Sequence record: DQ372055.1
Length of the DNA stretch: 757 nt
Strand: one strand, 5' to 3'
DNA from: a phage
Shown: one piece after another, positions 1 through 757 of the stretch
How positions within the stretch are numbered: the stretch's first letter is position 1
Layout: the number at the start of each line of letters is the position of its first letter
Made by a program: the position numbers and the translations under genes
Notes under the pieces: generated by a model
Seen by the model: only the letters and a program-made list of their open reading frames with translations
The model's database searches: none
What the model was told of the DNA's origin: nothing

Positions 1-106
1 TGACGACGACATGGCTCGATTGGCGCGACAAGTTGCTGCGATTCTCACCAATAAAAAACGCCCGGCGGCAACCGAGCGTTCTGAACAAATCCAGATGGAG
101 TTCTGA
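1..106 (+). CDS. cII: cII transcriptional activator, C-terminal fragment (5' end outside window; codon phase starts at nt 2; stop TGA 104-106)
   Basis: Frame starting at nt 2 translates to [34 protein letters not shown], which matches the C-terminus of phage lambda CII as I recall it. Not in the ORF track because it is truncated by the window edge. Identity is recalled, not computed. Confidence 0.88.
52..78 (-). terminator. Rho-independent terminator of the oop-type antisense RNA (minus strand)
   Basis: Read on the minus strand: 5'-CGCUCGG-UUGCCG-CCGGGCG-UUUUUUAU. A 7-bp GC-rich stem (six Watson-Crick pairs plus one G-U) formed by nt 72-78 and 59-65, loop 66-71, then a U6 tract (plus-strand A6 at 53-58). 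On the plus strand the run of A precedes the hairpin, so it terminates only leftward transcription. Position within the cII 3' end matches the lambda oop terminator. Confidence 0.6.
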
Positions 107-129
107 GGTCATTACTGGATCAATCCACA
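52..129 (-). ncRNA. oop: oop-like antisense RNA (about 78 nt), antisense to the cII 3' end and the cII-O spacer
   Basis: Terminator at 52-78 on the minus strand, and a candidate promoter on the minus strand that places the transcription start near nt 129. Length and position relative to the cII stop match lambda oop. The 5' end is inferred, not observed. Confidence 0.5.
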
Positions 130-135
130 GGAGTA

Positions 136-164
136 ATTATGCCAAAACAACTCAGTCCTGACCA
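136..164 (-). promoter_or_regulatory. Candidate po-like sigma70 promoter for oop (minus strand)
   Basis: Minus strand reads TGGTCA (plus 159-164; 4/6 to TTGACA), a 17-nt spacer, then CATAAT (plus 136-141; 5/6 to TATAAT). Predicted start is about 7 nt downstream, near plus nt 129. The -10 overlaps the ATG of the small ORF on the opposite strand. Confidence 0.4.
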
Positions 165-285
165 GGACAAATTACACAAAAACATACTACGTGATCGGTT
201 CTTATCCAGCTTCAAACAGCCTGGTCGATTTCGGGCTGAGTTGGAGAAAGTGAAGCTAATACTGAAGAGGAAAGGTCATGAGTAA
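139..285 (+). CDS. Hypothetical small basic protein, 48 aa: [48 protein letters not shown]
   Basis: ATG at 139-141 is preceded by AGGAG (129-133) with a 5-nt spacer. This is the same initiation context that lambda uses for O, about 32 nt after the cII stop. Open for 48 codons to TAA 283-285; the other two + frames are closed across this stretch (stops at 134-136, 159-161, 251-253, 257-259). Composition is 8 K + 5 R against 3 D + 3 E. The stop overlaps the O start codon. No homologue recognised. Caveat: a 48-codon open frame arises by chance about 10% of the time. Confidence 0.45.
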
Positions 286-757
286 TCTTGCAACAGTTAC
301 ACCGATAAAACCTCATCTGGAGGTTGTGGAGCATCGCGTGGCAGAACTCGACGATGGCTACACCCGGACTGCAAATACACTGCTGGAAGCTGTCATGCTT
401 TCTGGGCTTACTCAACATCAGCTACTGATTGTTATGGCTGTGTGGCGCAAGACATACGGTTATAACAAAAAAATAGATTGGATCGGAAATGAACAGTTCG
501 CTGAACTCACTGGCATGGCGCCAACCAAATGTTCTACCGCCAAAAACGAGCTTATCAGAATGGGGGTTCTCACTCAGGTGGGGCGTCAGGTTGGTATGAA
601 TAAAAATATTTCCGAGTGGAAGACGAAGGTTAACGGATTCGGTAAAACATTTACCAGATCGGTAAAACTAACCTTCACCAAATCGGTAAAAACCAATTTA
701 CCGAATCAGTCAAACACAAAAGACAATATACAAAAGACAATAAATACAAATACCCCC
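278..757 (+). CDS. O: Replication initiation protein O (lambda O family), N-terminal iteron-binding domain; 3' end outside window
   Basis: ATG 278-280 is preceded by GAGG (267-270) with a 7-nt spacer. It is the first ATG after in-frame stops at 251-253 and 257-259, and the frame stays open to the window end (160 codons). Translation [65 protein letters not shown]...NELIRMGVL...GMNKNISEW...TKDNIQKT aligns with lambda O from residue 1 as recalled (MTNTAKI..., DLDDGYARLSNMLLEA, LRKTYGWNKP, NEAKLELVRM, GPNKNISEW, TKDTITKE). Iterons lie inside the gene, as in lambda. Confidence 0.88.
637..706. repeat. Origin iteron array: three dyad-symmetric O-binding sites built on TCGGTAAA / TTTACC half-sites
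   Basis: Forward half-site (A)TCGGTAAA at 639-646, 659-666 and 683-690. Inverted half-site TTTACC at 650-655 and 697-702, and a degenerate TTCACC at 674-679. The outermost 10-mers, ATTCGGTAAA (637-646) and TTTACCGAAT (697-706), are perfect reverse complements. Forward half-sites are spaced 20 and 24 bp apart. Position inside the O N-terminal-domain coding sequence mirrors lambda ori. A possible degenerate fourth site, GGTTAACGG, lies at 628-636. Confidence 0.7.
716..742 (+). repeat. Perfect 13-bp direct repeat ACAAAAGACAATA (716-728 and 730-742) in the A-rich tract right of the iterons
   Basis: Identical 13-mers one nucleotide apart (period 14). They sit in a strongly A-rich, strand-asymmetric tract (707-757) in the same place as the A/T-rich unwinding region next to the lambda iterons, which as I recall has the related motif ACACAAAAGACAC...ACAAAAGAAAAAAG. 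Confidence 0.6.

Follow-up and report, generated by a model that had tools for sequence, protein, structure and literature searches.

We found that the small gene orf48 and the replication-initiator gene that follows it are joined by an 8-nt start/stop overlap (ATGNNTAA; ATG-to-stop offset, -5) in 196/196 related loci, and we hold with moderate confidence that translation of the initiator, gene 18 of Salmonella phage P22 in the DNA studied here, probably depends to a substantial degree on translation of orf48, by termination-reinitiation aided by ribosome-driven unfolding. The stretch analysed, hereafter the window, comprises 757 nucleotides of a phage sequence record (DQ372055.1), and its features are collected in Table 1. 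The 8-nt overlap is already annotated in the P22 GenBank records; to this we add evidence that proves orf48 to be a coding gene, a junction that is strictly conserved before initiator families with unrelated N-terminal halves, and a candidate long-range helix over the initiator start.

Make-up of the window and the start site of orf48

Alignment showed identity to phage lambda over bases 1 to ~121 of the window, which include the cII 3' end and the oop region, and 100% identity to P22 over positions 114-757, with the lambda/P22 crossover lying within ACTGGATC (114-121), common to both parents. Judged by these alignments, the window is a chimera of lambda cII followed by P22 orf48-18, and its sequence structure matches that given for the laboratory hybrid lambda cI857(18,12)P22 (hy106), which carries lambda cII, a near-intact oop, a hybrid pO and P22 orf48-18-12 (PMC3349717). 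The search for the full window (1-757) at full identity returned no match among the phage and E. coli collections searched. The P22 records (NC_002371, AF217253, AF527608 and BK000583) display the same ORF coordinates and the same 8-nt overlap as the window, and differ from it over positions 1-113, which correspond to the lambda cII/oop sequence.

The SD (Shine-Dalgarno) and ATG of orf48 (AGGAGTAATTATG, 121-141) are homologous to those of lambda O and lie in exactly the same position. In lambda this conserved start drives O directly, whereas phages of the P22 type use the ancestral O start for orf48, the start of their initiator having shifted 139 nt downstream. The oop terminator and the pO -10 are likewise shared between the lambda cII-oop-O region and the P22 type, and the -35 regions of their pO promoters differ (PMC3349717). 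The terminator is annotated in P22 too, but this part of the window is lambda sequence. The oop RNA runs on the minus strand from ~129 to ~50, its extent being given as -10 to -90 relative to the ATG (PMC3349717), and its 5' end (~129) abuts the orf48 SD. The pO -10 is the reverse complement of ATTATG and contains the orf48 start codon, and the -35 falls within orf48 codons 7-9; the very low synonymous variation in codons 5-11 is explained by these promoter elements.

The gene 18 product matched Pfam Phage_rep_O (E 2.7e-38, residues 20-114) and is 100% identical to that of P22. Gene 18 and lambda O are alike in bearing the origin inside the initiator and in a subsequent 4-nt overlap with the next replication gene; the annotated P22 rep_origin (32840..32984) corresponds to window positions 630-774, and its iteron-like repeats are ACCAGATCGGTAAAAC, CACCAAATCGGTAAAAAC and TTACCGAATCAGTCAAAC. 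An Rfam scan of the window gave nothing besides a sub-threshold match to MIR774, a plant microRNA (E 0.3, 626-717), which was rejected as a spurious match to the origin iteron repeats.

Table 1. Positions of the features discussed in the text, numbered along the window.
Feature	Position	Strand	Basis or remark
lambda cII 3' end	2..106	+	Stop TGA 104-106; lambda-identical; Pfam Phage_CII, E 2e-09
oop terminator tO	47..82	-	Stem 82-55 plus T run; terminator scan
orf48 SD, AGGAG	129..133	+	Homologous to lambda O SD; pairing -6.9 kcal/mol
pO, oop promoter	136..164	-	-35 TGGTCA 164-159, -10 CATAAT 141-136; promoter scan; P22 annotation gives the same bases
orf48 (48 aa, DUF2740, predicted two-helix hairpin)	139..285	+	Pfam, E 2e-28; P22 annotation
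Left arm of candidate helix, orf48 codons 16-22	185..203	+	Core CGUGAUC 190-196; folds, pair probabilities, duplex controls
Apical hairpin CAGCCUGG/UCGGGCUG in orf48	217..238	+	Almost no synonymous variation
Right arm of candidate helix	265..284	+	Gene 18 SD (GAGG 267-270), spacer, AUG and next 4 nt
Gene 18 start over orf48 stop, ATGAGTAA	278..285	+	ATG 278-280, TAA 283-285; -8 nt spacing
P22 gene 18, 5' 480 nt (lambda-O-like replication initiator)	278..757	+	Cut by window end
P22 replication origin inside gene 18	630..757	.	Iterons and A+T-rich stretch; cut by window end

Coding status of orf48 and conservation of the junction

In the annotations of P22, HK022 and an Erwinia phage, the orf48 family occupies a fixed place, with a cII-like gene/oop on one side of it and the replication initiator on the other. 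The P22 product scores 98.3 bits with Pfam DUF2740 (PF10872; cut-off, 27), over the full length of the profile (positions 1-43 of 43), and also matches PHROG 1913 (E 1.3e-26). The sample that we assembled from viral and genome contigs comprised 196 related loci, to which annotated phages were added; these loci span ~30 distinct 48-nt junction sequences and about a dozen enterobacterial genera, and include 54 distinct small proteins, 134 distinct downstream proteins and 82 distinct orf48 nucleotide versions. Across the 82 versions, third codon positions are two to three times more variable than first and second ones (entropy over codons 12-42 of 0.60, compared with 0.28 and 0.22). In the orf48 frame the pooled pN/pS amounts to 0.27, whereas the other two frames give 2.4 and 1.1, and pairwise omega between clades is mostly 0.05-0.4. 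Furthermore, K14, G29, R30 and E36 are invariant among 41 Orf48 proteins, and the ORF is intact across about a dozen enterobacterial genera. By these sequence measures, orf48 is a real protein-coding gene under purifying selection, and, given the selection and the frame-specific pN/pS, it is translated; codon periodicity and pN/pS thus uphold the claim of the original prediction that the upstream frame is used. In a peptide-independent leader the amino acid sequence would be free to vary, and this was not found, as shown by the pN/pS of 0.27 and the invariant residues.

The AlphaFold model of Orf48 is a two-helix hairpin (pLDDT 82), for which a Foldseek search against the PDB returned no match. 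In RefSeq NC_002371 the gene (P22gp50) bears the label 'tail protein', which stems from PHROG 1913; since orf48 is fixed between cII/oop and the initiator, in the early-right operon and replication module, this label is very unlikely to be correct. In the literature searched on orf48 function, DUF2740, hkaW and P22 gene 18 coupling, only map descriptions proved relevant. One segment of the gene, the apical hairpin CAGCCUGG-UCGAUU-UCGGGCUG, corresponds to codons 27-34 (peptide QPGRFRAE) and is nearly invariant at synonymous sites, the neighbouring codons being saturated. No covariation was detected in this hairpin in the orf48 alignment, and the low variation may reflect the peptide, an RNA structure, or both; the Erwinia phage has a different hairpin, beginning at the same CAGCCU.

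At the junction (window 271-290, aaaggtcATGAGTAAtcttg), the gene 18 ATG sits 5 nt 5' of the first base of the orf48 TAA, and the two genes lie in different frames (frame 1 for the ORF at 139-285, frame 2 for the ATG at 278). The gene 18 frame is shut by TGA 263-265, the first available start thereafter is this ATG, and the frame is then open through the window end. The SD, GAGG, is located within orf48, 7 nt 5' of the ATG. Against the 16S 3' end it has a predicted pairing energy of -7.3 kcal/mol, compared with -6.9 kcal/mol for the orf48 SD and a window background mean of -2.8. Every lineage retains this SD (-6.2 to -9.0 kcal/mol), although the amino acids encoded over it vary (KRK, KEK, RGK, KDK, KEN). 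A scan of the + strand between orf48 and gene 18 revealed neither a promoter-like nor a terminator-like site, and the two co-directional genes belong to the P22 early-right operon, where the annotation (NC_002371; orf48 32349..32495, gene 18 32488..33303) has identical geometry. The original prediction had described an overlap of stop and start in different frames, an SD for the second gene inside the first, and a classic coupling geometry, and all of this stood: the SD is usable, and the arrangement belongs to a recognised class of -8 nt overlaps (NTGNNTRA), which is the third most enriched overlap spacing in prokaryotes, behind -4 and -1 (PMC12548453). Its name for the second gene was right in so far as the gene is lambda-O-like and wrong as to lambda O itself, the gene being P22 gene 18; the small ORF corresponds to a gene already known, orf48 (DUF2740).

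The spacing is unchanged in the variants GCATCATGAGTAA, GATCATGAGTAA, ATGGGTAA and ATGGATAA, and at each locus with an intact downstream ORF a replication-initiator-type protein starts 5 nt before the stop of the orf48-family gene. The HK022 annotation keeps the -5 offset too, and homologous junctions are those of HK620 (hkaW-O), HK022 (gp53-O) and VT2-Sakai (H0097-O). Even the most distant homologue, in Erwinia phage Midgardsormr38 (54% identity), retains the overlap (AAGGAGAATGGTCATGAGTAA / GGTCATGAGTAA); when the Erwinia-type protein was used to scan for homologues more divergent still, the yield was limited to identical copies and a single Klebsiella-type locus. Conservation in related phages, the check proposed with the original prediction, was thus borne out, and no intact relative lacks the overlap; the conservation of the overlap in 196/196 loci indicates that it is more than a chance arrangement. 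The only overlap-free locus, in Salmonella phage PSP2-22 (ON886116, 20733-21203), was set aside as a deletion derivative from a record flagged UNVERIFIED_ORG: the deletion fuses a DUF4752 gene to an orf48 that ends at GGTCA, the replication genes are gone, and the locus may represent a misassembly or a defective element. Two double-frameshift orf48 variants (P0050 and P0055), considered as natural experiments, were likewise rejected as assembly errors or decaying prophages, and they allow no inference because the same loci have a broken rep gene.

Downstream of orf48 we identified two initiator families whose N-terminal halves are unrelated. One consists of O-like proteins of several specificities; the other, of HK022-type initiators (299-304 aa), lacks Phage_rep_O and, in BLASTP, resembles gene 18 only weakly and only at the C-terminal end (E 0.014). 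All downstream proteins begin with M-S-N or, rarely, M-G-N, M-D-N or M-S-K, since the overlap dictates the first codons. Codon 2 of the initiator always ends in T, and the synonymous AGC or TCN were never seen in the 196 loci, as expected under a dual constraint in which the orf48 frame needs a stop codon. The mosaic boundary lies immediately after ATGAGTAA in HK022-type genes and ~20 codons into the gene in O-like ones. For instance, IMGVR_UViG_3300011778_000001 carries behind orf48 a lambda-type O that is near-identical to lambda O from residue 21, its first 20 codons being different (MSKTATVIPIRPSLAVVEQR) and the lambda DNA homology beginning 59 nt after the ATG; the orf48 module of O-like genes therefore includes approximately the first 20 initiator codons.

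A candidate helix over the initiator start

The folding predictions pair orf48 codons 16-23 with the gene 18 SD and AUG, an interaction not previously noted. In the fold of window positions 120-400, CGUGAUC (190-196, codons 18-20) is placed opposite GGUCAUG (274-280), UUCUU (199-203) opposite the SD-containing GAAGAGG region (265-270), in a register that differs between predictions and lineages, and UACU (185-188) opposite AGUA (281-284). The helix is present in both the MFE and the centroid of the window, and predictions for all lineages tested agree on the partners. The core has a pairing probability of ~0.7 in P22 and 0.9 in the HK022 type, rising to 1.0 in the types of Cronobacter/RGK, Klebsiella and Erwinia. 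Furthermore, duplexes of -15 to -23 kcal/mol were obtained in 19/19 distinct arm combinations, in all of which (19/19) the true left arm beats the 71 other ORF windows as partner, and the observed codons rank within the top 0.5-16% of synonymous recodings (top 8% for the P22 type). An SD is purine-rich and pairs with any pyrimidine-rich stretch.

In the 82-sequence alignment, 97.5% of cells pair, compared with 32-44% when the partners are slid. Changes on both sides were found in 3/12 pairs (A-U/U-G, C-G/U-A and C-G/U-A), which amount to few independent events in related sequences, and the covariation score was 0.125 against 0.078 in shuffles (0/500 reach it), the structure having been derived from the same sequences. 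The 7-bp core never varies and hence says nothing about pairing, the register is shifted in one clade, and RNAalifold, run on the ORF-only alignment, picked the apical and middle helices only and not the basal one.

In the RGK-type and Erwinia lineages, opening the region from the SD through AUG+5 requires 12.7-17.5 kcal/mol, against 6.4-7.8 kcal/mol in their synonymous-randomised controls, of which 0 or 1/30 reach the observed value (3/30 for locus L102); removal of the orf48 RNA lowers it to 3-7 kcal/mol. For the P22 type it is 8.0 kcal/mol, not above the corresponding controls (7.7 +/- 2.3), and the HK022 type likewise shows no excess over its controls, so that an excess is confined to the RGK-type and Erwinia lineages. 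The helix is statistically convincing in some lineages and not in the P22-type sequence, and as a structure over the gene 18 start we regard it as plausible but unproven; where present, it would make coupling obligatory in at least some lineages. As a separate observation, GATC (Dam) sites occur at 193-196 and 117-120 of the window, one of them inside the invariant left arm CGTGATCG; this site is not universal, as the Erwinia phage and one other lineage have GACC instead.

Probable translational coupling and its alternatives

Under the proposed coupling, most ribosomes would arrive at the initiator gene via orf48, and in translating it they would melt an irregular hairpin of ~100 nt with, at its base, orf48 codons 16-23 paired with the initiator SD and AUG. 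The ribosome terminating at the TAA would cover the AUG and, once released, could start again 5 nt upstream with the SD holding it in place, or else a new 30S subunit might bind before the helix re-forms. Initiator synthesis would then be dependent on, and proportional to, orf48 translation; for the fixed ratio of the two products that had been suggested originally, analogy is the sole support. Unfolding and reinitiation models are both established for other pairs and are not exclusive (PMC12548453); as the stop and start overlap here, and a terminating ribosome covers the gene 18 start, unfolding alone could not be the whole mechanism. No published test of gene 18 coupling to orf48 was found in the literature searched, and the P22, P22-pbi and HK022 records inspected carry no note on coupling or RNA structure.

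Among the closest known systems are pairs with -8 nt overlaps (NTGNNTGA/TAA class) coupled by termination-reinitiation (PMC12548453), with which orf48/gene 18 shares the spacing, the co-directional order, an SD in the upstream ORF and a common operon. The products of coupled pairs are often subunits of the same complex; as the initiators behind orf48 have unrelated N-terminal halves, a stoichiometric Orf48-initiator complex is unlikely. Huber et al. are said to have described, in 2019 and 2023, the coupling of -8 nt overlapping pairs by termination-reinitiation. In E. coli rpmI-rplT, f1 VII-IX and MS2 coat-lysis, the start is sequestered by a segment of the upstream ORF (PMC12548453), as predicted for orf48/gene 18, which differs in that its stop and start also overlap and in that the predicted structure is weak in the P22 type.

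The overlap could instead reflect genome compaction only, gene 18 initiating independently at its own SD and the overlap persisting, with no regulatory role, since each gene constrains its own part of the junction, be it the ATG, the TAA or the codons beside them. We consider this unlikely, though it deserves to be taken seriously: a competent gene 18 SD at 7-nt spacing exists in all lineages, sequestration of the initiation site in the P22 type does not exceed that in randomised controls, lambda replicates with an O lacking any upstream small ORF, and the conservation of ATG and stop is partly explained by each gene's own needs. Moreover, overlap is the default packing of this operon; in P22 (32349-37809) all neighbouring genes between orf48 and gene 23, both included, overlap one another (by 8, 4, 4, 4, 4, 34, 4, 8, 8, 4, 4, 20 and 4 nt, in order), with the -8 class occurring thrice (orf48-18, ninX-ninF and ninF-ninG), and the orf48/gene 18 overlap is thus typical of the operon. 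Compaction accounts poorly, however, for a geometry that is invariant over ~30 junction variants, is kept when the overlap itself changes (GCATCATGAGTAA to ATGGATAA, that is, GCATCATGAGTAA, GATCATGAGTAA, ATGGGTAA and ATGGATAA), and stands before two initiator families with unrelated N-terminal halves; the predicted start-occluding helix is, in several lineages, stronger than expected, and tested overlapping pairs are generally coupled (PMC12548453).

Two further alternatives concern orf48 itself. It could be a translated leader only, ferrying ribosomes to the gene 18 start and encoding a functionless peptide, as DUF2740 has no known function and no PDB fold match, the opposite-strand pO sets the 5' end of the gene while the SD and the overlap set the 3' end, and an unrelated small ORF, gp53 of HK97, occupies the same slot and likewise overlaps O. 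We regard this as very improbable, because purifying selection on amino acids acts in codons 12-42, away from promoter and SD, and four residues are invariant in the 41 proteins, with a confident two-helix prediction. That the small ORF is an untranslated chance frame, and its overlap meaningless, is barely credible: it is short (48 codons) and was not annotated in early P22 records (M10074), but its Pfam match lies far above the cut-off (98 bits against 27), codon-position periodicity and pN/pS are specific to its frame, its strong SD and ATG are homologous to the lambda O start site, and it is intact in about a dozen genera.

Beyond the coupling we favour, the segment from pO to ATGAGTAA might be viewed as a portable 'translational gate' cassette, moved by recombination before initiators with unrelated N-terminal halves, and composed of a strong, conserved start abutting the 5' end of the antisense oop RNA, a conserved gene for a small peptide, a hairpin of ~100 nt with the next start hidden in its base, and the -8 overlap. 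Initiator synthesis would in that case be slaved to orf48 translation and thereby to the lysis-lysogeny events of the oop/cII region, and the Orf48 peptide itself might act on replication or on a host factor. Taken jointly, these proposals are a speculation that we think rather doubtful.

If coupling as such is true, the amount of initiator in P22-like, HK022-like and many Stx-converting phages would be set by orf48 translation, and there would be an extra control point between the lysogeny-decision region and replication, orf48 sitting atop the oop promoter. The travelling of orf48 with whichever initiator follows would be explained, and altered initiator expression would be expected upon deletion or recoding of orf48, or when gene 18 or O is cloned without it. 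Otherwise, the junction represents routine overlapping-gene organisation in a densely packed phage operon.

A partial parallel is found in HK97 (gp53 29720-29881, O 29868-30689), in which gp53 occupies the same slot with the same start site and relative frame, and AGGAG lies upstream of O; gp53 is, in contrast, an unrelated 53-aa peptide, and its overlap with O is 14 nt (ATGGGCGTCGTTAA), not 8. The MFE of gp53-O shows pairing, and with an opening energy of 7.7 against 7.76 in controls, and a duplex rank no better than controls, HK97 was rejected as independent support for start occlusion. The N-terminus of gp53 (MTKRRKKYQEK) resembles that of the Erwinia orf48 homologue, which is probably due to shared pO DNA.
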